From IMG/VR virus record IMGVR_UViG_3300035670_013237, positions 60,001 to 92,000 of that record: DNA of 32,000 nucleotides, one strand, 5' to 3'. The position numbers and the translations under genes are program-made. This document shows, piece after piece, positions 2,988-26,811 of the stretch. This DNA comes from a virus. The notes beneath the pieces are model-generated. The model searched no databases and was not told the origin of the DNA. It saw only the letters and a list, made by a program, of their open reading frames with translations. Numbering within the stretch: position 1 is the first letter of the stretch; every line of letters begins with the position of its first letter.

Positions 2988-3773
2988 ATGCGAAAGGTGA
3001 CTGTCACTGAGAATGCCATAAGAGAGCTCATTCGCGGTGCATTTGATGGTAGGGGAATGAGGCTCCTAGAAAAATTGGCGGACCCACAGCCTATCAAGGT
3101 GAATGATGTCGTCGACCCATCAGCGGCAGTGACTGATCCGGACAACGAGGACTTTCGTCCGACGACCCCCGCTGAGTTCCAAGTTGCCGTAAAAACTTTG
3201 GTCGAAGAGCTGCCGAGCGATAAGATCGCAGATACATATGAGAAGCTTGTCAAAGCTTTAAACCAACCTGAAGATAAGGATAAGAAGATGAAGAAAGACA
3301 CAAAGGCAGAAGCGTTCGTGAGATCTCTTGTGCGCAGGACGATAAATGAGAGTCTGGAAGATGAGATGCCTCTTCCAAAGGTACCGCGCAAGTATGCTGG
3401 TGCGGTGAACACCCCTGGTGGTGGTCTCGAAGCCATTGCGAAGAGATTCGGTCTATCAACCTCAGGAGCGAAGGGTGCTGTTGATAAGGCCCTCTCCAAA
3501 GCGCAGTGGTCCGCATCAATGCAGTTCGGCTCCCCTGAGGAGATGGAAGAGATTGTCCTCACTGCCGTGAAGGACTACATCGATTTCCTGAAGGGCTCTG
3601 GTGAGCTTGAGCCCGCTGAGGTCAAGCTCCTGAAGGACAACCCAGGCATCGTGAGCTCTCTTGATGGATTCCGCGAATTTCTTCACAGTTACATCAAGCG
3701 CGCGCGCAAGCAGCGCCCTGAGGGTGTACCGATGAAGAAGGGCGACATTCCCTGGACCAATCGCGGCGAGTGA
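2988..3773 (+). CDS. hypothetical protein, loose member of the N-terminal leader family
   Basis: GGAGG SD 7 nt before ATG 2988, just after the upstream TGA (2984-2986). Starts MRKVTVTENAIRELIRGAF. Confidence 0.65.
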   Translation: MRKVTVTENAIRELIRGAFDGRGMRLLEKLADPQPIKVNDVVDPSAAVTDPDNEDFRPTTPAEFQVAVKTLVEELPSDKIADTYEKLVKALNQPEDKDKKMKKDTKAEAFVRSLVRRTINESLEDEMPLPKVPRKYAGAVNTPGGGLEAIAKRFGLSTSGAKGAVDKALSKAQWSASMQFGSPEEMEEIVLTAVKDYIDFLKGSGELEPAEVKLLKDNPGIVSSLDGFREFLHSYIKRARKQRPEGVPMKKGDIPWTNRGE

Positions 3774-4531
3774 ATGACATGAAGCGAGAGATTGTCGCTG
3801 CGGTTCAATTTGAACCTAAAATACTTGACGTGGACCAGAACCTGGCCACGGCTCAGCAGCTTGCTTTTGAGGCCGCTGCGAAGGGTGCTCGCGTCATCGT
3901 ATTGCCAGAGTTATGCACTTCTGGTAATGTTTTTAAGAATGCCAGAGAAGCTGTCGACTGTGCACAAGAAAAAGGCGGCTATCAAACTGCCGGATTCTTG
4001 CCCATCGCTCGCCGCTTCAATTGCTACATAGCCTTCGGGTATCCTGAGCTCTGCGACGGTAAGCTGTACAACTCAGCTGCCGTCGTTGGACCAGATGGTG
4101 TCGTTGGTAACTGCCAGAAGCACAATCTCTGGGGTTCTGATAATCTCTGGGCGCAGCCCTCCGAGCAGCTGCACCCGGTGATTATGACGCCTGTGGGACG
4201 CCTTGGAGTCCTCATCTGCAGGGATTCTGCGAACAAGTTTAGAGAATCTTACCGATTCTATAAGCCTGGGCAGAAATTCTACTCGATGGGCTCAGTCGAC
4301 ACGATAGCTCTGCTGACAAATTGGGGAATGCAGTATGGTTATCCTGACGCAGCATGGGTCGACCTCGCAGAGCAGACAGGCGCCAACGTCATCGTTTCTA
4401 ACAGGATCGGGAAAGAGCGTGACTTGAAGTTCAAGGGTGGCTCTTGTGTCATTGATAGAGATCGTCGTATTTGGACGAATGGATCCTCGTTCACCGAGGC
4501 AGCCGTCGTCGGCGGAGCTGTCCTGCTGTGA
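3770..4531 (+). CDS. carbon-nitrogen hydrolase (nitrilase superfamily)
   Basis: The E-K-C triad contexts are present: VIVLPELCTSG, GNCQKHNLW, GVLICRDS. Start is GTG 3770 (overlapping the upstream TGA) or ATG 3779. Confidence 0.8.
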   Translation: MNDMKREIVAAVQFEPKILDVDQNLATAQQLAFEAAAKGARVIVLPELCTSGNVFKNAREAVDCAQEKGGYQTAGFLPIARRFNCYIAFGYPELCDGKLYNSAAVVGPDGVVGNCQKHNLWGSDNLWAQPSEQLHPVIMTPVGRLGVLICRDSANKFRESYRFYKPGQKFYSMGSVDTIALLTNWGMQYGYPDAAWVDLAEQTGANVIVSNRIGKERDLKFKGGSCVIDRDRRIWTNGSSFTEAAVVGGAVLL

Positions 4532-4923
4532 AGTTGACTAAACTACACGAAGAATTCATTGAAGCCTCGAAGCGGCCGATGCAGCTCGGTCGCCTGCCAG
4601 TTTCTGCCCGTGAGGCCGAGCTGCCCGTGATTCCCATGAACCGGTGGCGCCTCGAAGGCAGTCCAAGTGCCCTCACGAAGACATTTGGCTTCATGCGAAA
4701 GGGCGACAGGAACAAGATGCTGGAGGCACTCTTTGATCACGAAGATGCGACGCAGCACCATGCAGTCATCACGATCGAAGAAGACACACTGAAGATCTCT
4801 CTCCTGACGAAGAATGTGGAGCAGGTAACGGAGCTCGACAAGGAGTACGCAAAGTTCGCGGACCAAGCGTACAAAGACGTCGTCTATGCGCCGAATCTCG
4901 ATCACCTCAAGGGCTACATGTGA
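4528..4923 (+). CDS. pterin-4a-carbinolamine dehydratase (PCD/DCoH)-like protein
   Basis: GTGA start-stop overlap with the nitrilase gene. W.L......LTKTFGF......ML..........QHHAVITIEEDTLKISLLTKN...VTELD resembles the PCD fold signature (HHP...v.i.l.T...g.t..D). Confidence 0.5.
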   Translation: MKLTKLHEEFIEASKRPMQLGRLPVSAREAELPVIPMNRWRLEGSPSALTKTFGFMRKGDRNKMLEALFDHEDATQHHAVITIEEDTLKISLLTKNVEQVTELDKEYAKFADQAYKDVVYAPNLDHLKGYM

Positions 4924-4929
4924 TATTAT
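4921..4929 (+). promoter_or_regulatory. extended -10 promoter element TGATATTAT, 6 nt upstream of ATG 4936
   Basis: TGnTATTAT at 4921-4929, then acttca, then ATG. No SD present and no clear -35. Confidence 0.35.
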
Positions 4930-4935
4930 ACTTCA

Positions 4936-5325
4936 ATGAGAGCCATTGAAGATAATCCCAGCTTGCTCTTGAGCGATTCACTCCAAGACAATATGTCAGA
5001 TTTTGGAATACCTGCAATACAGGACAGGTTCATTCTGTCCACCCTCAGTGTGCTTGTCAACGAAATTGCCGAAAAGGTTGTGGGCAGCGTCGTCGCATAC
5101 ACGGCAGGTGCCGATGAGTGCCTGTTAGAGACTAAAATATTCGTTGGTGATGCGTTCAGCCTCCTAGAAGTGTGGACTTCTGTGCGGCTGGAGAAATACG
5201 AATTATGTCTTGGGGAAAATATCATTGAATTTTTGGGTCCATTTTCTGTGGCCTCTATCGCCATCAGAGACATTGATACGACACGACAGTTGTGTGTATT
5301 AGAGTTGAAGTTGCGCAAAGTTTGA
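4936..5325 (+). CDS. hypothetical protein
   Basis: 129-aa ORF co-oriented with its neighbours and preceded by an extended -10. The antisense ORF 4926-5318 is S/R/N-rich and less protein-like. Confidence 0.45.
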   Translation: MRAIEDNPSLLLSDSLQDNMSDFGIPAIQDRFILSTLSVLVNEIAEKVVGSVVAYTAGADECLLETKIFVGDAFSLLEVWTSVRLEKYELCLGENIIEFLGPFSVASIAIRDIDTTRQLCVLELKLRKV

Positions 5326-5352
5326 CCTATTTACTTGTCATGGAGCCGCGTC

Positions 5353-5595
5353 ATGCGAAAAAAAATCTACGAAAATAAAGCCTGCAAGTGTGGTGAAGAT
5401 TGTGAGTGTGGTGAGGACTGCCCGTGCCATGATGCCAAAAATGAGAGTGCACAAGTCTTTGCCTTCGATAAGTTCATGGATACGATCGTCCTGAGCGAGT
5501 CGAAGCGCACACATACAGGTGATTCCCCTATTCGCGAGCGGGCGAGGCGCCACCAAGAGCGCCCACTCGGTCGCATTCGATTTGGAGGCAAATAA
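5353..5595 (+). CDS. small Cys-rich (metallothionein-like motif) protein
   Basis: MRKKIYENKACKCGEDCECGEDCPCHD has six Cys plus a His within 17 residues and a tandem CGEDC unit. ATG 5353 is preferred over TTG 5335. Confidence 0.5.
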   Translation: MRKKIYENKACKCGEDCECGEDCPCHDAKNESAQVFAFDKFMDTIVLSESKRTHTGDSPIRERARRHQERPLGRIRFGGK

Positions 5596-6131: not shown

Positions 6132-6161
6132 TTGTCCAGGGTGGCGTGTTTCGTATAAAAT
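6132..6161 (+). promoter_or_regulatory. sigma70-like promoter directly abutting ATG 6168
   Basis: TTGTCC (6132-6137), then TATAAA with a 16-nt spacer or TAAAAT with an 18-nt spacer. Only 6-8 nt remain before the ATG and there is no SD. Confidence 0.4.
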
Positions 6162-6167: not shown

Positions 6168-6401
6168 ATGCACAACAGCTTACTTGAAAAACGCATGGTG
6201 AAGCTTCCACGTGGGGGCGAACTCGAAGTTCAACTAACATCAGCAATTAGCGAAAGAATTAGGCAGCACTTCGGCCTCACAGGAGACCAGGCGATAGAAG
6301 ACGATCATGTGAGAATTTTTTTCTGGGGTGTCGTAAATAAAGCTATTGACGGGGCTGAGAGCGAGGTTAGAGATGGAGGAAGGCGAGAAATTAATAGCTG
6401 A
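6168..6401 (+). CDS. hypothetical protein
   Basis: 77-aa ORF immediately downstream of the promoter-like element. Confidence 0.5.
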   Translation: MHNSLLEKRMVKLPRGGELEVQLTSAISERIRQHFGLTGDQAIEDDHVRIFFWGVVNKAIDGAESEVRDGGRREINS

Positions 6402-6651
6402 ATTTGTTAGACTTTTAGCGGAGACGAAGCTTCGTGAGGCTGAGATCTCAGGCGGCCGCCGCGTCGCCTGGGGCTCACCTGAGCACATTGCTGACCTCGA
6501 ATCTCGAATCGCGGACCTGTCCAGCTGGCGCAATAAGCAGCGCCGCGGGTCTGAATCTCGAGCAAACTACGCGCGGGTGGTCTCAAAGCTGAAAGCCGAG
6601 CTTGCGTCTGCCCTTCGATTCGCTGCAAAGGCCGAAGCAAAAGAACGCTGA
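6373..6651 (+). CDS. hypothetical helical protein
   Basis: GAGG SD 6 nt before ATG 6373 (the TTG at 6346 is an alternative). Overlaps the upstream gene by 29 nt. Confidence 0.5.
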   Translation: MEEGEKLIAEFVRLLAETKLREAEISGGRRVAWGSPEHIADLESRIADLSSWRNKQRRGSESRANYARVVSKLKAELASALRFAAKAEAKER

Positions 6652-7149: not shown

Positions 7150-7410
7150 ATGGAAGACCTGAGCGAGCGTATTCACGAAGCACTCAGCGAAGTTCATGCC
7201 TATGCGGGCCATGTCGACGACTGGATCACCATAAAGAAGGAAATCCTGAAGTCACTGCCTTCGCAAGAAAGGCGTGCCTTCAGCACACGACACCCAATCA
7301 CGAAGAAGCAGAGCATGAATGAGTTTGAGCGTAAGGTTGCCAACCAGTGGGAGGAATTAACTGGCCGGCCCGTGATATTTAAAGATCATGAAAAAGTCGA
7401 AAGAAGCTGA
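7150..7410 (+). CDS. hypothetical protein
   Basis: ATG directly follows the upstream TGA; 86-aa ORF. Confidence 0.5.
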   Translation: MEDLSERIHEALSEVHAYAGHVDDWITIKKEILKSLPSQERRAFSTRHPITKKQSMNEFERKVANQWEELTGRPVIFKDHEKVERS

Positions 7411-8389
7411 GCTGCTCCGTGAATATGTGAGGTCAGTCCTCAAAGAAGATGATGGAGGGGCGATTGGATACTCTGATCTCGCCATGATGTCAGGACCTGG
7501 AGGCGCAGGCCACGGAATGGAATCACAATTCTGGAGTCTCTTCACAACTTCATTCGGCGATGTCCTGAAGACCGCAGCAGCCGAGTTTAAGAAGCTGGGT
7601 GTTCGCGCAATGACTGCGGTCAAAGTGGGTGTGGAGAGTGTAAAGACCACCGTGCTGCCATGGTTAATGCCCAGGTTCGACAAAATTTTTCAAGAACAAA
7701 AAAGCAAGATTGACTCAATCAATCAAGAATACGCCGATGTGTATAAAAGAACTCAGGATGCGCTGGGGACCAACACAATCGGTGCGCTGTCTCTCATCAT
7801 GTTTCCTGAGGGATACATCACAAAAAAATTCATAGAAAAAGCGCCCCGCGCGGCATATGAGACGCTCAACGCGGCTCTAGGCGGTGAATTGAAGAGTGCT
7901 GTGGGCAAGCTCACTGGGGGTGGCGAAAGCAAAAAAGAATCTCTGGGCAGGCGAGGCCGCCTCCTTAATGAGGATAGCACTTCTGAGCTCTCTGACGAAC
8001 AGTTGCGTGACATGCTCTTAAAAAATTATGATAAACTGATGAGCAAGGCCAAGGAGAGCAAAGCTAAGAAAGAGATTGAGAGTGTTTATAGGTCTGCACT
8101 TGACCAAATCAAGAAAATTGTCGAAGGGTCAAATGAACTCGTGGCGAAGAAAGTCGAAGAGGCTCTAAAAAATCCAGATGATAAGATGAAAGCTGCGCTG
8201 GCGGGAGCGAAGTCTGACAAAGAGAGACAGAGCATCACCAAGTCCTTCCAGGCAATGTCCATCGCAGGCATTAAGAAAGAAACCAAGAAGATCATCGAGG
8301 CTAAAGGCAGCGAGCTCTTCGCACAGCTGCCCAAAGGTCATCCACTTCGACAAGAATTCGACAAAATCCTGCAGAGTCTCGGCGGTTGA
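7388..8389 (+). CDS. hypothetical K/E-rich helical protein, loose leader-family member
   Basis: 333-aa ORF; the N-terminus MKKSKEAELLREYVRSVLKEDDGG resembles the shared leader. TGATATTTA lies 6 nt upstream of the ATG. Confidence 0.65.
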   Translation: MKKSKEAELLREYVRSVLKEDDGGAIGYSDLAMMSGPGGAGHGMESQFWSLFTTSFGDVLKTAAAEFKKLGVRAMTAVKVGVESVKTTVLPWLMPRFDKIFQEQKSKIDSINQEYADVYKRTQDALGTNTIGALSLIMFPEGYITKKFIEKAPRAAYETLNAALGGELKSAVGKLTGGGESKKESLGRRGRLLNEDSTSELSDEQLRDMLLKNYDKLMSKAKESKAKKEIESVYRSALDQIKKIVEGSNELVAKKVEEALKNPDDKMKAALAGAKSDKERQSITKSFQAMSIAGIKKETKKIIEAKGSELFAQLPKGHPLRQEFDKILQSLGG

Positions 8390-8420: not shown

Positions 8421-8714
8421 ATGGGAAAGCGAAAGAAGACTTCACCGAAGCAGTACAATGTTGCGATCATGCAGCCCAATGAGATCAACCAGCTGCGAGC
8501 TCTTGTCAAGGAGTTTGTGGGTAAGATCGAGGCTGTCGACAATGAGATCGAGATGCTCAAGGAAGACCGAAAAGAAATAATTGAAGAATACACTGAAAAG
8601 CTTGACTATAAGACCCTCCAGGCCGCGTTGAAAGTCGTAAAGATCCAAGAGAGTGTAGAGCACAAGGATACTTTTGATTTGTTCATGGAAGCATTGTCAG
8701 AGTCTACTCCGTGA
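8421..8714 (+). CDS. GapR/DUF2312-like small DNA-binding protein
   Basis: QLRALVKEFVGKIEAVDNEIEMLKEDRKEIIEEYTEKLDYKTLQAALKVVKIQ...FDLFMEAL parallels the GapR pattern QLKSIIDRVERLE.EK..I...IKEVYAEAK..GFDVKVL..VV..RK......ILDLYL.A. Confidence 0.45.
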   Translation: MGKRKKTSPKQYNVAIMQPNEINQLRALVKEFVGKIEAVDNEIEMLKEDRKEIIEEYTEKLDYKTLQAALKVVKIQESVEHKDTFDLFMEALSESTP

Positions 8715-10233: not shown

Positions 10234-10884
10234 ATGAGAATTACACTTAAACAACTTCGTAAAGTCATCAAAGAGGAGATTCAGCGACTCACAGAGTCGA
10301 CCGGCGGCGACTCGATCGCTTCTTGGAAAGCCAATGCGAAAGCATCGCTCCAGTCAGGCGCCGACGAGGCAGACATTGCTCAGGAGTGGGACGACCTCAT
10401 CACAAAAGCAAATGACCTGGTTGATGTTGCCTTTGCCTATGACGATGAAGCGTTCTCGACCTCACTCACGCAAGCGGAGTTTTTCGCCTTCTTGGTCAAA
10501 AACAAGGATCTTGATGATAAATTTAGGGAATATCCAGGTGTAGTACAGGAAATTGCGCAGCTGATACTTCGTGGAGAGGAGTACCAGCAGTACGGAGAGT
10601 TCATGGTGAAGGATCTGCACAGGGAGATCGATGCCCATGCCGCGGCGGGACAGAATGTCAAGGCTAGAAACGCTCGCTTGAGTGCCTTCCTCGAGAAGCA
10701 CGGCGTGGCTGATTCTGGCGTCGACACCACTTACGCCGATAGGGTCACACCCCGTGAGGGTGGTGCCATGATTGCACACAGCAGGATGGTTCAAAATGTG
10801 CAGCGCTACCTTGACTCGGGCGATGAGAAGGGTGCTGAGGACTACATCAACAAGATCTATAATCGCGCCCGCGGCTATCGTTGA
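10234..10884 (+). CDS. hypothetical protein, strict member of the N-terminal leader family
   Basis: GGAGAG SD before ATG 10234; starts MRITLKQLRKVIKEEIQRL. Confidence 0.65.
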   Translation: MRITLKQLRKVIKEEIQRLTESTGGDSIASWKANAKASLQSGADEADIAQEWDDLITKANDLVDVAFAYDDEAFSTSLTQAEFFAFLVKNKDLDDKFREYPGVVQEIAQLILRGEEYQQYGEFMVKDLHREIDAHAAAGQNVKARNARLSAFLEKHGVADSGVDTTYADRVTPREGGAMIAHSRMVQNVQRYLDSGDEKGAEDYINKIYNRARGYR

Positions 10885-12799: not shown

Positions 12800-13030
12800 A
12801 TGGCACTATCAAAAGATAATGTGATAATCATCAGGGCTGCAGCGAAGGAGGCAGGTGACCACCTGAAGGGCAGGCTCCCTCCTTGCAAATTCCTGAAAGA
12901 GCGCAACTCGTATGCCCACATCTGGGAGCGCCTCAAGGCCCGCCTTGGTAGATCATACAAGGATTGTGATGATGCACAGGTAGGCGAGATTTTGCGCCTC
13001 ATAGAGTGGTACCGCAATAACCCATGCTGA
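12800..13030 (+). CDS. hypothetical protein
   Basis: 76-aa ORF downstream of the promoter; the antisense ORF 12787-13017 was judged a shadow. Confidence 0.5.
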   Translation: MALSKDNVIIIRAAAKEAGDHLKGRLPPCKFLKERNSYAHIWERLKARLGRSYKDCDDAQVGEILRLIEWYRNNPC

Positions 13031-13515
13031 GAATCCCACCCAGGTCACCATTTGGACTCCTACAAGAAGATTTGTGGCCCAATGAATGGGCTATTCTTGT
13101 GGGCTGCATCATGCTCAACTGCACGACACGACGACAAGTCGATAGGGTATTACCCACCTTCCTAAGAAGGTGGCCCAGTGCCCCCGCGCTCCTGGCTGCG
13201 GATAAAGCTGACCTAGTCAACGCAATTCGTTCTCTAGGCTTCGCGAACCGCCGCACGGAGATATTGCTGAAAATGTCGTCTGCGTACCTGAAGCCTGGAT
13301 GGAGGCATGCCCATGAGCTACCTGGGGTCGGGGTGTACGCCGCCCGAGCGTGGGAAATATTTTGTTGTGGTGTGATTGGTGACGACCCACCTGTAGACCA
13401 CGCCCTCGTGCAGTATTATCACTGGAGGAAGCAGAATGAAAAAAACACCGGACAAGAAGAAAGTCAACGTTCCGAAGCCGAAGAAGATGAGGCTCAACAT
13501 CAGCAAGTTTCCTGA
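13024..13515 (+). CDS. HhH-GPD superfamily DNA glycosylase, MBD4 glycosylase-domain-like
   Basis: WAILVGCIMLNCTTRRQV...WPSAPALLAADKADLVNAIRSLGFANRRTEILLKMS..YL....ELPGVGVYAARAWEIFC......VDHALVQYYHW parallels the MBD4 catalytic domain as I remember it, including the Asp before H.L..Y..W. Confidence 0.7.
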   Translation: MLRIPPRSPFGLLQEDLWPNEWAILVGCIMLNCTTRRQVDRVLPTFLRRWPSAPALLAADKADLVNAIRSLGFANRRTEILLKMSSAYLKPGWRHAHELPGVGVYAARAWEIFCCGVIGDDPPVDHALVQYYHWRKQNEKNTGQEESQRSEAEEDEAQHQQVS

Positions 13516-16275: not shown

Positions 16276-16488
16276 ATGAAGATCACTGTACGACAGCTGC
16301 GTAGAATTATCAAGGAAGAAATTGGAAGAATGGATGTAGGTGGTGACGACCCCAGGGCACTCTTTCATGATCTTAGCCAAGAGGGCCCAGTGTCACAAGA
16401 AGACTTTGAAGCTGCACTGGGATATGAGCCCGACTATGAGGAGCTAGGCCTTGAGGTTGATGCTGATGGTTTAGTGTTTGAACTCTAA
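16276..16488 (+). CDS. small acidic protein, strict member of the N-terminal leader family
   Basis: AAGGAG SD 6 nt before the ATG; starts MKITVRQLRRIIKEEIGRM. Confidence 0.7.
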   Translation: MKITVRQLRRIIKEEIGRMDVGGDDPRALFHDLSQEGPVSQEDFEAALGYEPDYEELGLEVDADGLVFEL

Positions 16489-16534: not shown

Positions 16535-17065
16535 TTAATCTTCTTTCTTTTCACCCGAAGCATACTTAATGCCCATTACGGTGCCAATGATTGAGAAAGA
16601 GTTTGTCAGTAAGATGCCTAGAGTTGAAGTCCAGGCATTGCCAATTACTTCAGTGTCTTTATCTAGAGCGATCGCAGTCACATATAGGGCTGTTGTAATG
16701 AGGCCCACACTAATGACCAATCCGAGTGCGATACCAACCACACGTCTCATCAATTGAAATTGCGTTCTTTTGCGAAGTAAATCTAGGTCTTGCTCTGCGG
16801 CAGCCTTGGCGTCCTCTGCGATGATAAGAGCATTCTTGAGCTTCTCTTGAGTTCTCTCAAGTTCTTTATTCTGCTCTTGAATTTGCTTCATTATTTCAAG
16901 GCGCTTCTTCCTCGTCTCGCTGTCTTTCGAGCTGGCCTCGTTGAGGTACACTTCAAAAGTGTCGTTGTCACTCTCAAGAACTTTCAACACGTTACCCTCA
17001 AGAAAGATTCCTTTCTCTTGAGCCAGATTGATTAGCTCTTGCTGGACTTCACGGGGAAGCTTCAT
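16535..17065 (-). CDS. coiled-coil protein with two C-terminal TM helices (third gene of the two-component operon)
   Basis: ATGA overlap with the receiver gene stop. K/E-rich heptad region, then VVGIALGLVISVGLITTALYVTAIAL and STLGILLTNSFSIIGTVMGI. Confidence 0.7.
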   Translation of the reverse strand: MKLPREVQQELINLAQEKGIFLEGNVLKVLESDNDTFEVYLNEASSKDSETRKKRLEIMKQIQEQNKELERTQEKLKNALIIAEDAKAAAEQDLDLLRKRTQFQLMRRVVGIALGLVISVGLITTALYVTAIALDKDTEVIGNAWTSTLGILLTNSFSIIGTVMGIKYASGEKKED

Positions 17066-17496
17066 GCATAGACCTTGAAGGGCTGGGTCTTTTCTTTGTA
17101 ACCCCTATAATCGCTCTTGAAACTAAGCAGCCTGGGCTCTATCTCATCAGACTTGACAATCCAGAATTGCGCGCCTGCTGAAATGGCTTTGGCAATTTCT
17201 TTTCTGTCTGAAGATGATGAGATGATGCCAATGACCACACCATTTCCATAAATTTCATTGACACGTCGCACGAGCTCAATTCCATCAAACGACGAGCCAA
17301 CAATGTTGAGGTCGACAAAAACGCATTCAGGCTTCTTCGTCTCACCCCGTGTCCATCTCTGGCACAATTCTTCAGCTGCCTCAGATGAATTCACTGTCTG
17401 CAATTGAAGTGTTATATCAAGGATGCTGCACGCATCTTCGAACACGAGGTGAAATAAGTTCTCGTCGTCGACGAGAAGAATAGACTCGATGATCAT
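17062..17496 (-). CDS. stand-alone response-regulator receiver (CheY-like)
   Basis: ATGA overlap with the kinase stop. LLVDDE acidic pocket, VFVDLNI phospho-acceptor context, IISSSS and FWIVKS (conserved Lys). No output domain. Confidence 0.8.
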   Translation of the reverse strand: MIIESILLVDDENLFHLVFEDACSILDITLQLQTVNSSEAAEELCQRWTRGETKKPECVFVDLNIVGSSFDGIELVRRVNEIYGNGVVIGIISSSSDRKEIAKAISAGAQFWIVKSDEIEPRLLSFKSDYRGYKEKTQPFKVYA

Positions 17497-18551
17497 CGCA
17501 ACCTCACTTTGAGCAACGTGCCCAATTCTAGTTTTTCGCACTCAATTGCAAAGCCATGTTCCCGCAAGATGGCGTTGCAGATGTTTAGACCGAGACCAGT
17601 GCCTTTTTCCTTTTGATTGGCTCGTCTAGTATATGGATAGGACATTCGGCTGAAGTCTTCCTGTGACATGCCCCGCCCATTGTCCTGGATCGCCATTGTG
17701 GCAGGATCGTGCATGTAGACCTTGACCCACTTTGTCTCTGAATCGTTGTATTTCAAACCATTCCTGATCAGGTTGTCGACTGCTGTGCAGAAAAGCGACT
17801 CATTGACGGGCAGGGTTATCAGGGGACTCACGACGACTTGGTCGTTATAAGACGTCATTGCCAGGTACGCGTTCAATATCTGCTGGAGATCCTTCTCTTC
17901 TTTCTCAAGGACCTTGTCTTCGCGCACAAGATTCGTGAACTCTTTCACACCCACATACACTTTCTGGGTGTGCTTCAGTCCATCTTTTAGAAGCCTGAGT
18001 GGTATTTCTAGCCTGTACGACTCAATGACATCTGGGCTCAATCTTCGCTCAATTGAAGCTATGCCACGCGGTATATAGGTATTGATTCCGCTGTGCATGT
18101 CATGGCGTAGTATCTTGGCAGCGTACTCAAGGTAGACATTCTTTTGATTGACATCGTTGAACGACTCAACGAGCCTCGTGATGTCCTGTCTAATCGATGA
18201 GAACCCCGTGTGCCTGCCGTTCTCGTCAAATTCAGCCTTAATGTAAGTGTCGACGTGATAGAATTTCCCACACTTTGAGCGATTGGTGACGATTGAGTTC
18301 CAGATCTCACGGTTCTTCACCGTGGTGGTGTACATGTTTCTCCAAAAATCTTTGGAGTGCACACCTGAATTAACGATCTTGTGATCTTTCCCGATGAGCT
18401 CGGGCAGCGTCCACCCTGACACTTCAATAAATTTTTCATTTGCGTAGATGATGCGTCCCTTCGTATCCGTGCGGCTGATCAAGGCTGCTGCGTCAATCAG
18501 GTCGTGTGGAAGAGTCGACAGGGTCATCATAAATGTTTTAGGGTCACTCAA
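17493..18551 (-). CDS. cytoplasmic PAS-domain sensor histidine kinase
   Basis: PAS domain (RIIYANEKFIEVSGWTLPELIGK...GFSSIRQDIT); H-box ILRHDMHSGIN; N-box DNLIRNGLKY; G1 IQDNGRGM; G2 GTGLGLNI. No TM segment. Start is TTG 18551 or ATG 18530. Confidence 0.85.
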   Translation of the reverse strand: MSDPKTFMMTLSTLPHDLIDAAALISRTDTKGRIIYANEKFIEVSGWTLPELIGKDHKIVNSGVHSKDFWRNMYTTTVKNREIWNSIVTNRSKCGKFYHVDTYIKAEFDENGRHTGFSSIRQDITRLVESFNDVNQKNVYLEYAAKILRHDMHSGINTYIPRGIASIERRLSPDVIESYRLEIPLRLLKDGLKHTQKVYVGVKEFTNLVREDKVLEKEEKDLQQILNAYLAMTSYNDQVVVSPLITLPVNESLFCTAVDNLIRNGLKYNDSETKWVKVYMHDPATMAIQDNGRGMSQEDFSRMSYPYTRRANQKEKGTGLGLNICNAILREHGFAIECEKLELGTLLKVRLR

Positions 18552-19150: not shown

Positions 19151-19432
19151 ATGAAGAACAAAAACACGATTCTCATAGAGATCGCGATACAGTCGGCTGG
19201 GAGAGTGTTCTCAGGGTTATACTGGGGACGATCAACTCCGCTTGAGAGCATACCTTACCTCATTGAGGAAGAGTGTGATCGACAGATCACATCGGTATTC
19301 AAGTCTGAAGATAAGATCTCAGAAAGAGACGTTCACATGTGCAAAATGTATGCCGTCCAGTATTATAACGAATACATGTCTAGAATTATGACCCATAGAA
19401 TGAATCAAATCGAGAGTGAACAAGATGCCTGA
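19151..19432 (+). CDS. hypothetical protein
   Basis: 93-aa ORF downstream of the promoter. Confidence 0.5.
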   Translation: MKNKNTILIEIAIQSAGRVFSGLYWGRSTPLESIPYLIEEECDRQITSVFKSEDKISERDVHMCKMYAVQYYNEYMSRIMTHRMNQIESEQDA

Positions 19433-20252
19433 GGGACCTGAGCTTGCGATTAGTCGTGACATGCTACGACCTGCGTTGGTCGGGAATCAATTGTTGCACA
19501 TGGGTTTCATGGGACGTTATGCAAATAAGTCCCCTGAGGGTTATCAGGATCTTTCTTTTGATTTGTCCCGATCACCCGCAAATATCGTGGAAGTTGACGT
19601 CAAGGGCAAATTCATGTGGTGGAAACTTTCCATCGCCGGCGAACCTGAGCCTTGGTATGTGTGGTGTACGTACGGCATGACCGGCCAGTGGTCGCGGATC
19701 GCCTCAAAACATACATCAATTATTGCGTATCTAGATAACGAAACGTGCATGTTCTTCAATGACCAACGTCGTTTTGGCACCATTAAATTCATCAAAGGCG
19801 ATAAACTTCACCAAAAGAAACTATCCACCCTCGGACCGTGCATTCTTGGTGGCTCGCTAACACCAGAAATATTTGCAAAAAATATTCTAAAGAAACCCTC
19901 AATCACAATTGCAGAAGCGCTGATGGATCAGGGAGTGATATCGGGGGTGGGTAACTATATCAAGGCAGAATGCCTGTATCGAGCGGGCATATCTCCCTGG
20001 CGGGCAGTGACTGATATTGCTGCTCCTGAATTTGTGAAACTGCACCGTGAAGTGCTTGATGTGGCTCGTGAGTCATATGAGTCCCAAGGCGCAACGATTT
20101 ATACGTACAAGAACGTTGATGAATCTGAAGGGTCAGCGCAGTTCGAATTCCAGGCATATGGTCGCAAAACGTGTCCAAGAGGACACGATATCATAAATGA
20201 ACAAACGCCTGAAGGAAGAACGTCATGGTGGTGCCGGACCTGCCAGAAATAA
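19425..20252 (+). CDS. Fpg/Nei family DNA glycosylase/AP lyase
   Basis: N-terminus MPEGPEL (catalytic Pro2/Glu3), H2TH region (GVGNYIKAECLYRAGISP) and a C-terminal zinc-finger region CPRGH...WWCRTC. ATG 19425 is chosen so that Pro is residue 2. Confidence 0.85.
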   Translation: MPEGPELAISRDMLRPALVGNQLLHMGFMGRYANKSPEGYQDLSFDLSRSPANIVEVDVKGKFMWWKLSIAGEPEPWYVWCTYGMTGQWSRIASKHTSIIAYLDNETCMFFNDQRRFGTIKFIKGDKLHQKKLSTLGPCILGGSLTPEIFAKNILKKPSITIAEALMDQGVISGVGNYIKAECLYRAGISPWRAVTDIAAPEFVKLHREVLDVARESYESQGATIYTYKNVDESEGSAQFEFQAYGRKTCPRGHDIINEQTPEGRTSWWCRTCQK

Positions 20253-21311: not shown

Positions 21312-22247
21312 ATGATGCTAGGCGTTTGTTGTCATTGGCTAGAAGAACGTGTGAAGCCCAAGGGCAAAGTCGAAGTTGTGAATGCGATGGACGAGCGTGT
21401 CCTGCAGCTCGGCCGCTACAGAGACGGGAAGTACTCGCATGAGCAGATCATGTCGACGTACGTCAATAACGCGACGAATCTCGCGAACATGTTACCCAAG
21501 ATCGCGGGGCACGGTGTCAGGCTGTTTCGCATCTCTTCCGCGCTATTTCCTCTCGCGGACCAGGTCGATCGATCCTTGTGGGACAACGACACCGTGCGGG
21601 GAATCCTCCGTGGTGCTGGCGACTTCATCAGGCAAAATGGTATGCGTGTCTCCACACACCCAGGCCAGTTCTGCGTTCTATCATCTGACACTGACAAGGT
21701 AATTGAGAACGCTATCAACGAGCTCAACCTACATGCATGGCTCTTCGACACCATGGGTCTTGACCACTCCCCTCAATATGCCATCAACATCCACGGGGGC
21801 AAGTCAGACCGTGCATCCCGGCTCATCGAGCAGATCAAGTCCCTGCCTGACAGCACACGCAAGCGTCTCACTCTCGAGAACGACGAGACAGCATACTCTC
21901 TCCTCGATCTCCTCGAAGTCCACAAAGAAACCGGGACACCGCTTGTGTGGGACTCCCACCACCACACCTTCAATGACGGTGACCTGACGATGGAAGAAGC
22001 TATGGGACTCGCTTCCGCCACATGGCCTGATGGCATCAAACCCTTGCAACACATCAGCAACACTGAACCCCACTTTATGTCGGGCGGCTCATTCACCGAG
22101 CGCCGCAAACACTCCGACCTAATTCACTACGTGCCAGAGCCCCAGCTCTCAGCACTTCGGGATGGAACGGTCGACTGTGAAGTCGAGGCGAAGCTGAAGA
22201 ATGTATCAGTCTTCAAGATGGCGAAAGATTTCGAAATTCCGATTTGA
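21312..22247 (+). CDS. uvdE: UV-damage endonuclease (UvdE family)
   Basis: STHPGQFCVLSS, INIHGG, LTLENDE and VWDSHHH are the TIM-barrel metal-site motifs of UVDE. Confidence 0.85.
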   Translation: MMLGVCCHWLEERVKPKGKVEVVNAMDERVLQLGRYRDGKYSHEQIMSTYVNNATNLANMLPKIAGHGVRLFRISSALFPLADQVDRSLWDNDTVRGILRGAGDFIRQNGMRVSTHPGQFCVLSSDTDKVIENAINELNLHAWLFDTMGLDHSPQYAINIHGGKSDRASRLIEQIKSLPDSTRKRLTLENDETAYSLLDLLEVHKETGTPLVWDSHHHTFNDGDLTMEEAMGLASATWPDGIKPLQHISNTEPHFMSGGSFTERRKHSDLIHYVPEPQLSALRDGTVDCEVEAKLKNVSVFKMAKDFEIPI

Positions 22248-22257
22248 AGGATTAGAT

Positions 22258-22503
22258 ATGGAGGGGGTTGACATGGTGGCAGTCACTGAATTTCAGGTCC
22301 ACATTTCCCAACAGGAAGAGTTCGAGAATTGTGCCTCTGCAGTGTTCGACTACACAGAGCAGCGCCTGATGCGCTATGTGAAGCTCATCAGCGACCGTCA
22401 GCAGAAGCAGGCACTCAATGATCTCCTCGAGAAATATAGGAAGGGCCGGGTCGCAATCTGCTGGAAGGGTGGTAATCCCTCTTGGCTTGATTTGGACATT
22501 TGA
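22258..22503 (+). CDS. hypothetical protein
   Basis: GAAGGA SD before ATG 22258; 81 aa; not GroES-like. Confidence 0.5.
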   Translation: MEGVDMVAVTEFQVHISQQEEFENCASAVFDYTEQRLMRYVKLISDRQQKQALNDLLEKYRKGRVAICWKGGNPSWLDLDI

Positions 22504-22543: not shown

Positions 22544-24142
22544 ATGAGCGAGAGCACAACACAAGTCCTATTCAAAAATGACGCCCGCCGCCAATTGTTC
22601 GTGGGCATGGAGATCGCTGCTGAGGCGGTGTCCACGACCCTTGGCCCAAAGGGTAAGACTGTCCTGATCCAACGTAAGGGTGAAGCGCCTATTGTCACGA
22701 AGGATGGCGTGACTGTGAGCAAGTCAATAAGGTTGCGCGATCCTGTGCAACGCATGGGTGCCGAGCTCATCCGCGAGGCTGCTGCACAGACAAATGAGAT
22801 CGCAGGAGATGGCACGACGACTGCGACTGTCCTCACGCACGCCATGGTGAAAGAGGGACTGAAGCTCCTCGAGGCCGGATATCCCGCGAAAGAACTATGC
22901 AAGGGCATTGAATTAGCGAGGGCCCGTGTGGATGAGAACCTTGCTGCTCTTGCGAAGCGCCTCACAACTGCTGAAGAGATTGCACAAGTGGGCACGATTT
23001 CGGCTAACGGTGACCGTAAGATCGGTGACCTCATTGCAGCAGCAATGGACAAGGTGGGCCGCGATGGCATCATCACGGTGGAAGATGCAAAGGGCATGGC
23101 GACTACCCTCGAGGTCGTCGAGGGCATGCAATTCGATCGCGGTTATCTTTCTCCTTACTTCGTCACCAACCAAGACCGCATGAGCGTCAACTATAATGAC
23201 GCTAGGGTCCTTCTGACTGATAAGAAGCTAAATAACCTAAGAGAATTAGTGCCAATTCTTGAGAAGGTGATGCAAGGCCGCCAGCCCCTCATCATCATCG
23301 CAGAGGACGTCGAAGGTGAAGCTCTACAGGGCCTCGTGCTCAACAGAGTCAATGCGAACCTGCCCGTCGTGGCGGTCAAGGCGCCTGGATATGGACAGCA
23401 TCGGCATGACCTACTCACAGACATCTCAACTCTGACAGGCGCGAAGCTCGTGTCAGCCTCAACAGGACTCAAGTTGGAATCTCTCACCTTGCAGGATCTT
23501 GGCACCCTGAAGCGTGTGGTGGTCGATGCTAAATCGACGACTCTCGTGGGAACAGGGTCAACAAAGTCAAGCGTTGAGGCTCATGTGGAGAACCTCCGCA
23601 CACAGCTTCAAGATGTGACCCTCACGGTCGACGACGTCACGAAGCTGAAGGTGCGAATTGCGAAACTGGCGAGCGGTGTCGCGGTCATTCGCGTGGGCGG
23701 GGCGACAGAGGTCGAGATGATCGAACGCAAGTATAGAATTGAAGATGCCCTCAATGCTACTCGTGCTGCTGCGGAGGAGGGCATCGTGCCCGGCGGCGGC
23801 ATGGCACTTGCTACAATCACGAGCACAATAGATCTTTCTGCTGACTTGCCGCAAGAAGAAGCCATGGGAGCTTCAATCATCACACGAGCATGCCTTGCAC
23901 CGCTGAAGAGGATCTCGCAGAACGCAGGAGTAACACCAGAGGTAATCCTCAGTGAACTCCAGCGAAACCCAGGTAAGGGCTACAACGCCGCGACAGGCGA
24001 GTATGTCGATCTCATCGCGGCCGGTGTCATCGATCCTGTCAAGGTGACACGGACGGCCTTGAAAAACGCTGCCTCAGTTGCCACGACATTCTTGTCTCTT
24101 GATGCAGTCGTCTTTGATGAGGAGGGACAGGCGGGTGAGTAA
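22544..24142 (+). CDS. groEL: GroEL (Cpn60) chaperonin
   Basis: Near-canonical LGPKGKTVLI, PIVTKDGVTVSK, AGDGTTTATVLTHA and VAVKAPGYG motifs along the full length. ATG 22544 gives an MSESTTQVLF N-terminus. The protein ends ...EEGQAGE without a GGM tail. Confidence 0.95.
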   Translation: MSESTTQVLFKNDARRQLFVGMEIAAEAVSTTLGPKGKTVLIQRKGEAPIVTKDGVTVSKSIRLRDPVQRMGAELIREAAAQTNEIAGDGTTTATVLTHAMVKEGLKLLEAGYPAKELCKGIELARARVDENLAALAKRLTTAEEIAQVGTISANGDRKIGDLIAAAMDKVGRDGIITVEDAKGMATTLEVVEGMQFDRGYLSPYFVTNQDRMSVNYNDARVLLTDKKLNNLRELVPILEKVMQGRQPLIIIAEDVEGEALQGLVLNRVNANLPVVAVKAPGYGQHRHDLLTDISTLTGAKLVSASTGLKLESLTLQDLGTLKRVVVDAKSTTLVGTGSTKSSVEAHVENLRTQLQDVTLTVDDVTKLKVRIAKLASGVAVIRVGGATEVEMIERKYRIEDALNATRAAAEEGIVPGGGMALATITSTIDLSADLPQEEAMGASIITRACLAPLKRISQNAGVTPEVILSELQRNPGKGYNAATGEYVDLIAAGVIDPVKVTRTALKNAASVATTFLSLDAVVFDEEGQAGE

Positions 24143-24521
24143 GCTTAAAGAGCAAGAGCTCACGGACCAGATCCAACTAATCAACTGGGGTGGAACGTCA
24201 CCTGCTGAGCGTCGCACGTTTACAGAAGCTCTAGCACAGTTAGAGATCGCGGCTCTTGTTGACATGCAGGCTGCGACTGCGCGTCGCAGCCGGTTATCAT
24301 CTCTCGTTGTGGCTCTCGTGGGCGTTCTTTTAGCATCTCTCCTGGGAGCTGCACCTCCCACGCTGATCATGGTGGCTCTCGGTACTCAGCTTCTGATGTT
24401 CGTCGTGAGTCAAGTCTTGGAAAACGCATCTAAGAAGCTACTCGCAGCGGCTGAGGCACGAGCTCTTGAGAGGGTTGAATTTCTGGCAAAGAGACACCCG
24501 CTCCCACCAGCCCAAGACTAA
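24135..24521 (+). CDS. two-TM membrane protein
   Basis: GTG 24135 overlaps the groEL stop by 8 nt (ATG 24117 is an alternative). TM segments LSSLVVALVGVLLASLLGA and LIMVALGTQLLMFVVSQVL. Confidence 0.5.
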   Translation: MSKLKEQELTDQIQLINWGGTSPAERRTFTEALAQLEIAALVDMQAATARRSRLSSLVVALVGVLLASLLGAAPPTLIMVALGTQLLMFVVSQVLENASKKLLAAAEARALERVEFLAKRHPLPPAQD

Positions 24522-24527
24522 TATTTA

Positions 24528-24779
24528 ATGAACATGGATGATTATTATACCCCAGGCCAGCTCGTCACACGGCGGTATCGCTGGAGTATAAGTTCTCATG
24601 TACTGGGAATTGTTATTCACACACCTGTAGATGATGAAAACCTGCTCACTGTGCTCTGGGCGCAGAATGATACATGTCAAGGCAACCCCACAATGGCAGA
24701 CTGCCACCGCAGCAACCTGCTGCCAGTCGATGAAGATTCATCCGCACAGCTAGGATCGCGATGTCAGATCACTACATAG
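24528..24779 (+). CDS. small protein of the PGD/SH3-like paralog family
   Basis: YTPGQLVTRRYRWSISSHVLGIVIH...LLTVLWAQ. Confidence 0.5.
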   Translation: MNMDDYYTPGQLVTRRYRWSISSHVLGIVIHTPVDDENLLTVLWAQNDTCQGNPTMADCHRSNLLPVDEDSSAQLGSRCQITT

Positions 24780-24985
24780 GAGAATTTGTGCTCTATAGGC
24801 CTGCTCGGGTGGGTCGTGGGGAGAGTGTCGCAATGATCTTATCGATCAAGAATTCTAATTCACCTCGCTGGTCCAGTGAGATTGATTATCAGCACGTGTA
24901 CTATGTGCTCACTAATTCTGGTAATGTAGAAGGTCCGCTATTCTCGTCGGAGCTGTTGAGTGTTTCAAAAGTACATGCCGGGTGA
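24761..24985 (+). CDS. small protein of the PGD/SH3-like paralog family
   Basis: YIGEFVLYRPARVGRGESVAMILSI...YYVLTNSG; compare YYVLTRSK at 20267. Confidence 0.5.
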   Translation: MSDHYIGEFVLYRPARVGRGESVAMILSIKNSNSPRWSSEIDYQHVYYVLTNSGNVEGPLFSSELLSVSKVHAG

Positions 24986-25199
24986 CCTTGTCTACTTAAC
25001 CTGGAGCACCTGCGGCACAATACATGATCCTGCAAATCCGCTTCAAGCGCATTATCTCTGGCTCAATAAGGGCCAATACGGAATGATCGTGGGAGGTCTT
25101 GGGCACCCGTCTAAGGAAACGCGGGGTGAAATTGAAATGCTGACTTTCATTGAGGGTAAATTGATCTGGGTCGAGTGCGACTGCCTGGAGCTCTTATGA
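24975..25199 (+). CDS. small protein of the PGD/SH3-like paralog family
   Basis: ATG 24975 gives MPGDLVYLTWSTCG and overlaps the upstream stop by 11 nt. Confidence 0.55.
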   Translation: MPGDLVYLTWSTCGTIHDPANPLQAHYLWLNKGQYGMIVGGLGHPSKETRGEIEMLTFIEGKLIWVECDCLELL

Positions 25200-25409
25200 C
25201 ATGTCAGCGATGATCTCTTGAATGAGCTCTCTCAGCGCGGCATGATCCACGCTCTCAGCCTCGATCGCCGCTATCTGCCCTTGGGCACCCTTCCGTGATG
25301 TGTGGCAGTTGCGGTGTTTCTTGCCCTTCTTGTCTTTGTACGATAGGACATAGCTGCCCCTGTCGCCGTCTGATTGCTTACACTTTTGTTTGCGAATTGT
25401 GTATGGCAT
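25194..25409 (-). CDS. small basic hypothetical protein
   Basis: 71-aa ORF on the opposite strand. Lys-rich N-terminal half with CK...CH; the C-terminus ALRELIQEIIADMS resembles the shared leader motif. Confidence 0.5.
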   Translation of the reverse strand: MPYTIRKQKCKQSDGDRGSYVLSYKDKKGKKHRNCHTSRKGAQGQIAAIEAESVDHAALRELIQEIIADMS

Positions 25410-25430
25410 GCTTTTACCCTGTAGATGTTG

Positions 25431-25459
25431 TGCAGTATAAATTATGTTCTAGGCATAAT
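25431..25459 (+). promoter_or_regulatory. sigma70-like promoter TGCAGT-N17-CATAAT, 7 nt before ATG 25467
   Basis: Lies in the divergent intergenic region; no SD. Confidence 0.4.
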
Positions 25460-25466
25460 TAGTTCC

Positions 25467-25703
25467 ATGAGAATGACGATTGCTGAGCTCAGGCAGATAG
25501 TGCGAGAAGAAGTTGAGCGCAACAATCGTTGGCTCGCGGGATTTTTTATCGGCGGGGGAATTAGCGGGGGTCGCAAAGGAACGATCACACCTCCCCTCGG
25601 CTTGGGGACAGAAGAAGAACAAGAACACCATGGCGAAGAACAACAAGAAGAACCAAGGCAGGCAGGAGAAGAGCGGTGGGCGAGAGCGGGAAGACGCCGT
25701 TGA
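25467..25703 (+). CDS. small protein, strict member of the N-terminal leader family
   Basis: Starts [20 protein letters not shown]. The 3' 74 nt overlap infA in another frame within a purine-rich tract, so the true stop is uncertain. Confidence 0.5.
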
Positions 25704-25899
25704 ACTCAATGGCACAGTCGACGAGGCCCTACCCGGGACCTTTTTTAGGGTCATATGCGAGGGCGGTCACACGGTGCTCGCTACACTCTCAGGCAAATTG
25801 AGAATGAATCACATCAAGGTGCTTCCAGGTGACTCGGTCACTGTCGAGGTCTCACCTTACGATTTAACGCGGGGAAGGATTTGTTGGCGTAAGGCTTGA
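25630..25899 (+). CDS. infA: translation initiation factor IF-1 homolog with a basic N-terminal extension
   Basis: [63 protein letters not shown] aligns residue by residue with bacterial IF-1 (S1-like OB fold). It is preceded by [24 protein letters not shown]. Confidence 0.9.
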
Positions 25900-26017
25900 G
25901 CCTGTGACGTGCAAAATCGAGAGATAAGAGGTGATACTTGAGCCCAAGTCGGCGCATGCCTAGCAATAAGCAGAACTTCGACGCGAAGAAATAAAATCCG
26001 TGCTTCGTCTTACGCAT
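25838..26017 (-). CDS. possible 59-aa basic ORF below the ORF-track cutoff
   Basis: AGGAGG SD 7 nt upstream of ATG 26017 (hand translation [25 protein letters not shown]...). The last 62 nt are antisense to the infA 3' end. Confidence 0.25.
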
Positions 26018-26112
26018 GCCATACCCTCCTTAAATTTGTGCCTATCTTACCCCATATTTTTCCATGACATTACTTATTCAAAGATTTGCAATAGGAATCC
26101 ATATTTAGACTT

Positions 26113-26475
26113 ATGAAGATCACAGAATCAGATTTGAGAAAGATCATTGTAAGTGAGATCGCTGCTCTTCGTGAAGAGACCGAGGGCCCTCCGCAAGTGG
26201 GAAAAGAGAAGGCTGACACCAAGGGAACTCTCGACATAAGTTCCATCGCGAAAGTGCTTCAGGTGGACCCTGGGAAACTAAAATCTGCTGTCGCTGCGGC
26301 GAAGGCTGGGAAGCGCTCTTCAGGTCACAACGCAATTCTTGGTGATGTTTTCGTCAAGTTGATGGAGGCCTCGCCTGAAGACACTGTCAAGGTAATGAAC
26401 ATGTTGAAGAAAGTGACGAGCAGCGAATCCGCAGGTTCTGGTGCACAACCAGGAAAACCGCAGAAGACAGCCTGA
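26113..26475 (+). CDS. hypothetical protein, strict member of the N-terminal leader family
   Basis: Starts MKITESDLRKIIVSEIAALREE. Confidence 0.6.
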   Translation: MKITESDLRKIIVSEIAALREETEGPPQVGKEKADTKGTLDISSIAKVLQVDPGKLKSAVAAAKAGKRSSGHNAILGDVFVKLMEASPEDTVKVMNMLKKVTSSESAGSGAQPGKPQKTA

Positions 26476-26496
26476 CATGAGCGCTTATTCATTCCC

Positions 26497-26811
26497 ATGA
26501 AAATAACAATAGGAAACCTCAGGCAAATTATTAGAAAATCTCTCAGTGAGGCCGGGGGTGCCCGTCCGAGCCGTCCGCAGCCTTATACAAGGAATGCAAT
26601 GGCACCTGACCTCGCTGACCGCGTGGCCATTGGCCGTCTTGAGACGGGGGAACCTGAAGAGGAAGAGCTACCCCCACACCTGAGAGAGCCCGTTGTTGAT
26701 TTCGAGGATTGCTATGGGCCAGTGCCTCCCATCGCGGGAGATCCTTATGTCGGGCAGGATCCCTTTGCACGTGACTATTCTCCCCTGCCCACGCCTGCGA
26801 TCAAGCGCTAA
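26497..26811 (+). CDS. hypothetical protein, strict member of the N-terminal leader family
   Basis: Starts MKITIGNLRQIIRKSLSEAGG; Pro-rich remainder. Confidence 0.6.
   Translation: MKITIGNLRQIIRKSLSEAGGARPSRPQPYTRNAMAPDLADRVAIGRLETGEPEEEELPPHLREPVVDFEDCYGPVPPIAGDPYVGQDPFARDYSPLPTPAIKR

Follow-up and report, generated by a model that had tools for sequence, protein, structure and literature searches.

What does a short peptide do when it heads several proteins that otherwise have nothing in common? The question is raised by a 32-kb stretch of viral DNA (positions 60,001 to 92,000 of IMG/VR record IMGVR_UViG_3300035670_013237, here called the window and numbered from its first letter), in which an earlier reading of the letters alone, the sequence-only reading, had noticed one leader at the N-terminus of eight otherwise dissimilar open reading frames (ORFs). 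Every peptide that it had quoted is present at its position. The results below support well that this leader is an N-terminal tag on unrelated cargo. As its best explanation, to which we give a little less than an even chance, context and analogy suggest a capsid-targeting propeptide that would be analogous to, and not homologous with, the signal of the internal proteins of phage T4.

A shared leader on unrelated proteins

In a six-frame translation of the window, the strict pattern M[KR][ILMV]T...LR.[IV][IV] had five matches (10234, 16276, 25467, 26113, and 26497) compared to 0.00 in 200 Markov shuffles, and a degenerate DNA pattern had three matches compared to 0.00 in 100 shuffles. A 22-residue hidden Markov model (HMM) built solely from unrelated IMG/VR sequences, hereafter the strict HMM, retrieved exactly five ORF starts from the window (12.6-35.8 bits) and nothing further at 6 bits or more. 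These are listed here with their scores and with the independent gene calls, which also include the genes at 2988, 7388, and 12575:

10234..10884, plus strand: strict tag MRITLKQLRKVIKEEI (10234-10281), 23.1 bits; called gene
16276..16488, plus strand: strict tag MKITVRQLRRIIKEEI, 35.8 bits; called gene
25467..25703, plus strand: strict tag on a 78-residue ORF, 22.2 bits; no gene call
26113..26475, plus strand: strict tag MKITESDLRKIIVSEI (I-V-S-E, then L-R-E), 16.3 bits; called gene
26497..26811, plus strand: tag in the strict register MKITIGNLRQIIRKSL, 12.6 bits; called gene

Among the five leaders the codon is identical in only 23% of same-residue pairs, and third-position identity is 35%; because the codons are randomised, the constraint acts on the peptide, which bears out the sequence-only reading in its view that this is peptide-level conservation and not a DNA repeat. 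The bodies, taken from residue 23 onward, have no mutual BLASTP similarity at E<=1e-3, and the sole match of the 10234 body among 5.8 billion proteins is itself, with no homologue, so that what had been judged unrelated by eye is also unrelated by search. Together with the lock of the tag to the initiator methionine described below, these unrelated bodies uphold the earlier claim of one tag on different cargo proteins over a family of paralogues.

The five proteins differ in size and character. That of 10234 has 216 residues, in which the tag is followed by L-T-E, an STGG linker, and an acidic body; its AlphaFold single-sequence model has a helix at residues 5-21 and then a break, at low confidence (predicted local distance difference test score, 50). 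The 16276 protein, with 70 residues, is very acidic (net charge -14) and is preceded by the Shine-Dalgarno sequence GAAGGAG, and an identical protein is present on a 271-kb contig. The 26113 protein (120 residues) has a basic body and the 26497 protein (104 residues) an acidic, proline-rich one. At 25467 the leader alone is secure and the body is doubtful, since the ORF is uncalled and its 3′ end overlaps by 74 nt the ATG-started gene (ATG at 25630) of the following feature:

25630-25899, plus strand: homologue of translation initiation factor IF-1 (PF01176, 80 bits)

The gene finder began the IF-1 gene at a TTG at 25513, and the IF-1 frame is open for ~130 nt upstream of its ATG. We do not claim a frameshift that would join the 25467 leader to IF-1, as by our own calculation the upstream frame would be open by chance with a probability of ~0.12.

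The strict HMM gives less than 6 bits to each of the three looser copies among the eight. They are given here together with other candidates and the gene in which one of these lies:

2988..3773, plus strand: loose variant MRKVTVTENAIRELIRGAF on a 261-residue protein; orthologue L140:835-2478
7388..8389, plus strand: loose sub-variant MKKSKEAELLREYVRSVLKEDDGG on a 333-residue protein; one homologue, P0185
12575..12769, plus strand: loose sub-variant VSSDLLRQYVLEVL with a GTG start, on a 64-residue acidic protein; called gene
6373..6651, plus strand: diverged candidate MEEGEKLIAEFVRLLAETKLREAEISGG, 92 residues
25194..25409, minus strand: C-terminal echo ALRELIQEII
8421-8714, plus strand: GapR-like DNA-binding protein, 97 residues (PF10073, E about 1e-3)

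In the proteins of 2988 and 7388 the N-terminal helix is the best-conserved part. The orthologue of 2988, from the syntenic relative L140 that supplied our orthologues, starts MATVIVTDAAIRELVREAL, and the N-terminal 19 residues are 63% identical compared to 39% overall; the homologue of 7388 retains LLREYVRxVLxEDDGGA at 83% identity, again compared to 39% overall. The form LLR.Y[VI] is also found at other N-termini (L140:7620, L140:18457, and L022:587-1672). The 12575 protein has LLR[EQ]YV in common with 7388 and is without an orthologue among the relatives examined, and its sequence places it in the set only tentatively. The leader once assigned to eight ORFs is thus retained for the five strict members, by HMM and shuffles, and for 2988 and 7388, by the helix conserved in their orthologues, while 12575 gains no such backing. 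By resemblance, 6373-6651 is a possible and equally tentative further member, diverged from the rest, whose orthologue (L140:6054-6323, 52% identity) retains LSEYVKLIVEKKMREADVSDG. The letters of the C-terminal echo are present, with nothing beyond resemblance to connect them to the leader, and we leave it out of the system because it is C-terminal, whereas the motif is anchored at the start codon in 115 of 120 matches. We also rejected a candidate near 8469 (MQPNEINQLRALVKEF) within the GapR-like ORF, as its orthologue is 60% identical over the full length, also 5′ of the internal methionine. That protein, which has 60% identity in L140, contains an internal LRALVKEF that resembles the tag core.

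Anatomy and spread of the tag

The IMG/VR set gives the consensus MKITKSQLKQIIKEEL, in which K5, Q7, Q10, and K13 are left free by the search pattern yet strongly conserved (~2.1-2.2 bits each); it is followed by a weaker h-h-E-E, where h is hydrophobic, and then by sequence rich in Gly, Asp, Glu, and Pro. By helix-capping rules the tag should form an amphipathic, strongly nucleated helix: I3 and L8 would make a hydrophobic staple and T4 and Q7 a capping box, from which nucleation is expected at residue 4, and L8, I11, I12, L16, and V or L at 19-20 would line a hydrophobic stripe flanked by Lys and Glu. The proteins would then read as tag, one or two h-x-E sites, a flexible Gly/Asp/Pro-rich linker, and an unrelated, often orphan cargo. 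Bodies range from 22 to 485 residues and include the recognisable and unrelated folds GNAT, FliG_C, PIN, and EF-hand; they are mostly acidic (median isoelectric point 5.2), with an excess of A, D, E, G, and P and a deficit of C, F, and W. One such enzyme is encoded on the contig of the window itself, ~8.5 kb past its 3′ end:

L005:747-1172, minus strand: GNAT acetyltransferase of 141 residues with a TTG-start tag MRLTLRQLKNIIQEAL (PF00583, 30.7 bits)

For this place the existing gene call is on the opposite strand, probably in error. A NUDIX protein of the relative L140 carries a loose tag, and by analogy enzyme cargo of these two kinds may parallel the T4 protein Alt.

The sequence-only reading had proposed a database search with a profile of the leader. 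Carried out exhaustively with HMMER, from a profile that combined the window copies with three database hits, this showed that the tag heads at least 2,014 protein clusters (50% identity) in metagenomes at E<=1e-3; the exhaustive search was needed, as a word-indexed protein search with the leader profile gave just 4 proteins. The degenerate DNA pattern recovered at least 120 IMG/VR loci, which yielded 180 ORFs of 22-485 residues with Shine-Dalgarno sites, many of them in tandem arrays (up to 7 tag copies in 8 kb), and 150 of 175 bodies are BLASTP singletons. When IMG/VR was matched to T...L[KR].IIKEEh, which demands no ATG, an ATG or GTG lay exactly three codons upstream in 115 of 120 cases; the tag is locked to the initiator methionine. 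Bacterial and archaeal genomes totalling 596 Gb yielded only 39 matching stretches, about the number estimated by chance, and the convincing cellular-genome matches were all on contigs of metagenome-assembled genomes, one with nine copies, and none in an isolate genome.

The motif could have belonged to a domain already described, as the sequence-only reading had allowed, and no model in Pfam, PHROGs, or NCBIfam covers it; nor is any family common to 150 members or to the window proteins, and source records label tag proteins hypothetical. Literature searches for the literal tag strings found none, and topic searches gave only work on T4 and SPN3US. Searches by tblastn with short leader peptides against cultured phages returned almost nothing, and queries so short are unable to attain E<10; three long tag proteins searched by sequence against the PDB gave nothing informative. 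The tag is absent from these three databases and from the searched literature, and its spread is far larger than could be seen from the window.

Tags from one locus resemble each other. Their similarity at unconstrained positions is 0.39 within a locus compared to 0.20 between loci, a difference reached in 0 of 1000 permutations, and their codon identity is 0.67 compared to 0.51. This likeness fits either a genome-specific receptor, as it would be expected if all copies must fit one such receptor, or local duplication. An array of five near-tandem tag genes, four adjacent and the fifth beyond a single gene, is found on a 6.3-kb contig (L096, IMGVR_UViG_3300034073_003391) from the same Joint Genome Institute metagenome as the window. 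Many metagenomic proteins (P0006-P0152; for example P0007, P0014, P0025, and P0036) are fusions of 2-4 tag-plus-body modules, whose internal tags retain the methionine in 79 of 133 copies, have a median spacing of 122 residues, and are preceded by a Shine-Dalgarno-like Glu codon. These multi-module proteins look like tandem tag genes fused through loss of stop codons. We considered E-[SGN]-K before the internal copies as a cleavage site and rejected it, since the retained Shine-Dalgarno sequence and ATG of fused tandem genes explain it better. A core of the same type is repeated 6-9 times, in forms like LTSDDLRSIIREEL, inside bacterial chromosomal membrane proteins of 875-975 residues (P0084, P0086; L142:8001-10928); these have no Pfam domain and contain low-complexity linkers, and their gene neighbours are CTP synthase and CNNM/CorC genes.

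Carrier phages and the source of the window

Large neighbours of tag genes often encode the large terminase (TerL), the portal, and the head-maturation protease. The portal of the carriers is gp20-type, and among cultured phages it is closest to the portals of Microcystis phage Mel-JY01 and Flavobacterium phage immuto (42-44% identity), with RM378 gp20 next. The protease of one locus, L126, is a true gp21 homologue (PDB 5JBL, E=2.7e-22), and gp21-type (S77) proteases with T4-type head genes were found in L126, L048-type loci, LR756508.1, and Flavobacterium phage immuto. The last of these, vB_FspM_immuto, has two N-terminal tag variants, MKKSQLRQIIKEAL (gp080) and MKKSQLREIIRKEL (gp094). The complete 484-kb uncultured phage LR756508.1 has ~25 tag ORFs on one strand, nearly all at 143-244 kb; the interval 142-174 kb contains its genes for TerL, the portal, the protease, and a gp23-type capsid protein, with eight tag ORFs among them. 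Its portal gene (145781-149407; L132-L133) matches in three pieces and its protease gene (156489-158174) in two, which suggests that the head genes are interrupted by insertions such as introns, inteins, or homing-endonuclease genes.

Conserved tag genes lie beside the protease gene in three lineages or more, and the nearest strict tag gene is less than 1 kb from the protease in 18 of the 25 loci that have both. In the L126-type lineage the gene directly upstream of the protease is a tag gene (L083 and L095); loci of the L048 type (L048, L022, and L050) have one tag gene between TerL and portal and two directly after the protease, one of these encoding an acidic protein of 81 residues. In T4, the genes for gp67, gp68, and gp22 lie around gene 21, and by analogy the 81-residue tag gene would occupy the corresponding region. 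The raw count placed 62 of 135 tag loci with T4-type head genes; we rejected an enrichment of tag genes at head modules, given the ascertainment bias that hallmark genes introduce among short viral contigs. Most tag genes are dispersed, like the genes that encode T4's internal proteins, and the conserved protease-adjacent ones still stand. As a separate observation, an apparent gene for ribosomal protein S21 sits within the head module, between the protease and capsid genes (L126:11214-11456 and L095:11221-11424); Mel-JY01 22183-22410 is annotated RpsU, and the identity of the L126 and L095 genes is our reading of their sequence.

The window belongs to an 86-kb metagenomic contig (Logan SRR11566349_100275), and proteins identical to those of the window are also found on the 271-kb contig mentioned above; the source is a large phage. 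Window bases 8000-30000, compared by megablast with 50,697 phage records, gave no match. A virion structural protein encoded in the window has ~30% identity to proteins of T4-like cyanophages and of a 485-kb uncultured phage, and its homologue in cyanophage RN05-S sits between the small and large terminase genes. The window genes are tightly packed and include those for a GroEL-type chaperonin, a PAS histidine kinase and response regulator, UvdE, Fpg, a 5′-3′ exonuclease, and the IF-1 homologue. Part of this content is unusual for a phage, namely the PAS histidine kinase with its response regulator, the GroEL-type chaperonin, and a DNA-repair set of Fpg, UvdE, and an HhH-GPD glycosylase:

17062-18530 (minus strand), 22544-24142 (plus strand), 19425-20252, 21315-22247, and 13024-13515 (plus strand): kinase, chaperonin, and repair genes

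Upstream of the window the contig encodes a DnaE-type polymerase, ThyA, thymidine kinase, dCMP deaminase, and superoxide dismutase. We also observed that ATATTTA on the plus strand (7375, 10208, and 26101 among the sites) lies 5-27 nt upstream of a plus-strand gene start at 4 of 5 sites, and TATTTA on the same strand (16255, 5328, and 2645 among the sites) at 6 of 7. The genes so preceded include the four tag genes 7388, 10234, 16276, and 26113; 7388 and 26113 are without a Shine-Dalgarno site and have the A/T-rich motif 5-6 nt from the ATG. The counts are small, and the motif may act like a promoter element or may point to leaderless starts.

Candidate functions and known systems

If the tag is a capsid-targeting propeptide, its helix would dock the cargo on the scaffolding core of a prohead under assembly, and a prohead protease of the gp21 type would then cut after glutamate, at I-I-K-E (before the second E) and/or after L-x-E; the released cargo would remain in the capsid and could be injected with the DNA. 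Such signals exist in T4, where propeptides of 10-20 residues dock cargo to the scaffolding core (PMC9026906; PMC5694885). The T4 capsid-targeting sequence (CTS) needs residues 4 and 7 for targeting and, for processing, the I and E of I-A-E at positions 8 and 10 (PMC9026906); it is carried by diverged internal proteins and can bring foreign proteins into heads (PMC9026906; PMC5694885). In SPN3US, gp53 and gp54 have an identical 15-residue N-terminus, MANFVKSKLARESVE, that contains a cleavage motif (PMC5694885). In the tag, I12 and E14 are near-invariant, even in sets that did not prescribe them. Capsid proteins of tag lineages have IVSE, LISE, VLKE, and LLKE in alignment with the T4 gp23 maturation site L-T-E65, and the glutamate is invariant; from these aligned sites, a protease rule h-h-x-E seems to have been kept, and the I-I-K-E of the tag fits it. 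A second h-x-E occurs within residues 17-35 in 73% of tag proteins compared to 30-36% of controls.

Several observations weigh against capsid targeting. The match to the cleavage site is no more than suggestive, as helices often contain the tripeptide h-x-E, and the 26497 tag is without the Glu pair, with L-S-E following. There is no sequence similarity between the T4 CTS, MKTYQEFIAE, and the tag consensus, and the N-termini of T4 head-module proteins also differ from the tag. The tag is, moreover, far more conserved, across very divergent uncultured phages, whereas the T4 CTS is conserved within one genus, and the cargo of the tag is mostly acidic whereas T4 internal proteins are basic. On contigs of at least 50 kb, 10 of 50 tag loci lie near head modules compared to 10.3 expected. 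As the core repeats inside a bacterial membrane protein, this type of helix is not intrinsically capsid-specific. For the source phage, the window tag genes stand amid DNA-repair and replication genes, the virion protein with ~30% identity is the sole tie of the contig to T4-type phages, and gene calls covering 52 kb of the 86-kb contig showed no portal, protease, scaffold, or capsid gene; with no head genes seen in that part of the contig, membership in the capsid-targeting class is not established for this phage itself.

The main rival, which we think unlikely, is a docking or oligomerisation helix for another shared partner, which could be a conserved hub of the phage or the host (for instance a chaperonin, or a factor of translation or degradation) or other tag helices in a coiled coil; it would stay uncleaved and cytoplasmic with no capsid loading. 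An amphipathic helix with a strong N-cap would suit this role, as would the acidic, disordered-looking bodies, the scatter of the window tag genes among non-structural genes with no head-module enrichment after control for bias, the occurrence of the same core as an internal repeat in a cellular protein, and the existence of fused multi-module proteins. A docking helix need not be N-terminal, yet the initiator methionine anchors 96% of matches, and a docking helix explains neither the conserved members beside the prohead protease in several lineages nor the near-invariant h-h-x-E and the second h-x-E. We consider it improbable that the tag proteins are fast-evolving paralogues, in which one small ancestral gene was amplified and the bodies diverged around a needed N-terminal helix without any targeting. 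Tandem arrays, which reach 7 copies in 8 kb, would be produced in this way, and the likeness of tags and of their codons within a locus (0.67 compared to 0.51) is as after local duplication; set against these are bodies of 22-485 residues with the unrelated folds GNAT, FliG_C, PIN, and EF-hand, the 150 singletons among 175 bodies, orthologue pairs that conserve the helix far above the body, and the randomised codons of the window.

That the tag is a leader for secretion or processing, whether of the double-glycine or ribosomally synthesised and post-translationally modified peptide (RiPP) kind or a Sec/Tat signal peptide, is largely refuted and very improbable. The tag superficially resembles double-glycine leaders (LSxxELxxIxGG), and five window copies have GG 20-35 residues in, but across the wider family GG shows no positional enrichment (12% compared to 7% of controls), the bodies are large and hydrophilic with Cys depleted 0.36-fold, there is no hydrophobic h-region, and no C39 peptidase, ABC transporter, or modification enzyme was found among the neighbours of tag genes. 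A nucleotide-level element, whether a translation enhancer, a recombination cassette, or a 5′ regulatory RNA, is refuted for the window and retains next to no probability: initiation would benefit from the AT-rich codons 2-5, and several tag genes have ATATTTA just 5′ of them, both weak points, whereas third positions are 35% identical and codons are shared in 23% of same-residue pairs in the window, and all 16 residues are conserved as amino acids in genomes of 40-52% G+C.

Wider readings can also be formed in which the tag would be a universal, sequence-readable address label used throughout a branch of T4-type phages that is very large and uncultured, and taken jointly they seem to us quite unlikely. 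The label might mark all proteins that are loaded into the capsid and injected, that is, the full injected set of GNAT and NUDIX enzymes and orphan effectors, or, more radically, it might serve non-capsid, N-terminus-dependent targeting, either as delivery to a phage-built structure or as timed N-terminal processing or degradation. For this second form we know of no precedent.

If the tag is a capsid-loading signal, sequence alone would suffice to list the proteins that uncultured phages inject. These would be the first phage molecules that host defences meet, and the list would comprise thousands of candidate anti-defence or takeover effectors, mostly orphans. A tag of 16 residues, compact and very strongly conserved, could also package foreign proteins in the capsids of non-model phages, as the T4 signal does. 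Should its function be another, the tag would still be a conserved, abundant, and strictly N-terminal feature of marine and freshwater phages that is unexplained and directly testable.

Among known systems, the double-glycine and Nif11-type RiPP leaders (prochlorosins) likewise place one N-terminal leader before many hypervariable downstream sequences in marine genomes; unlike them, the tag has no fixed GG site, Cys-rich cores, or nearby transporter and modification genes, and its cargo reaches 485 residues. Encapsulin cargo-loading peptides are also short conserved peptides on unrelated cargo and dock inside an HK97-fold shell, whereas they are usually C-terminal and uncleaved, belong to cellular nanocompartments, and have another consensus. 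The propeptides of phiKZ and SPN3US resemble the tag in being conserved N-termini with x-E motifs on diverged head and ejection proteins, of which there are many per virion (PMC5694885). Unlike the tag, they mostly exceed 100 residues, belong to one paralogue family each, and have the protease motif A/S/G-x-E. To our knowledge, no single universal tag has been described in these giant phages. The T4 CTS, which is removed by gp21 from IPI, IPII, IPIII, and Alt, differs from the tag in length and number, the tag having 16-22 residues with a capping-box helix and up to ~25 copies per genome compared to 4-5 in T4. Both are short peptides at the extreme N-terminus of otherwise diverged proteins and end in hydrophobic-x-Glu, a likeness that for the tag is one of sequence; a second cleavage-type site follows the first in T4 IPIII (PMC9026906) as it does in tag proteins; and both systems consist of accessory, polymorphic genes, which in T4 and in tag carriers such as L126 and LR756508.1 are accompanied by head genes of the gp20, gp21, and gp23 types.

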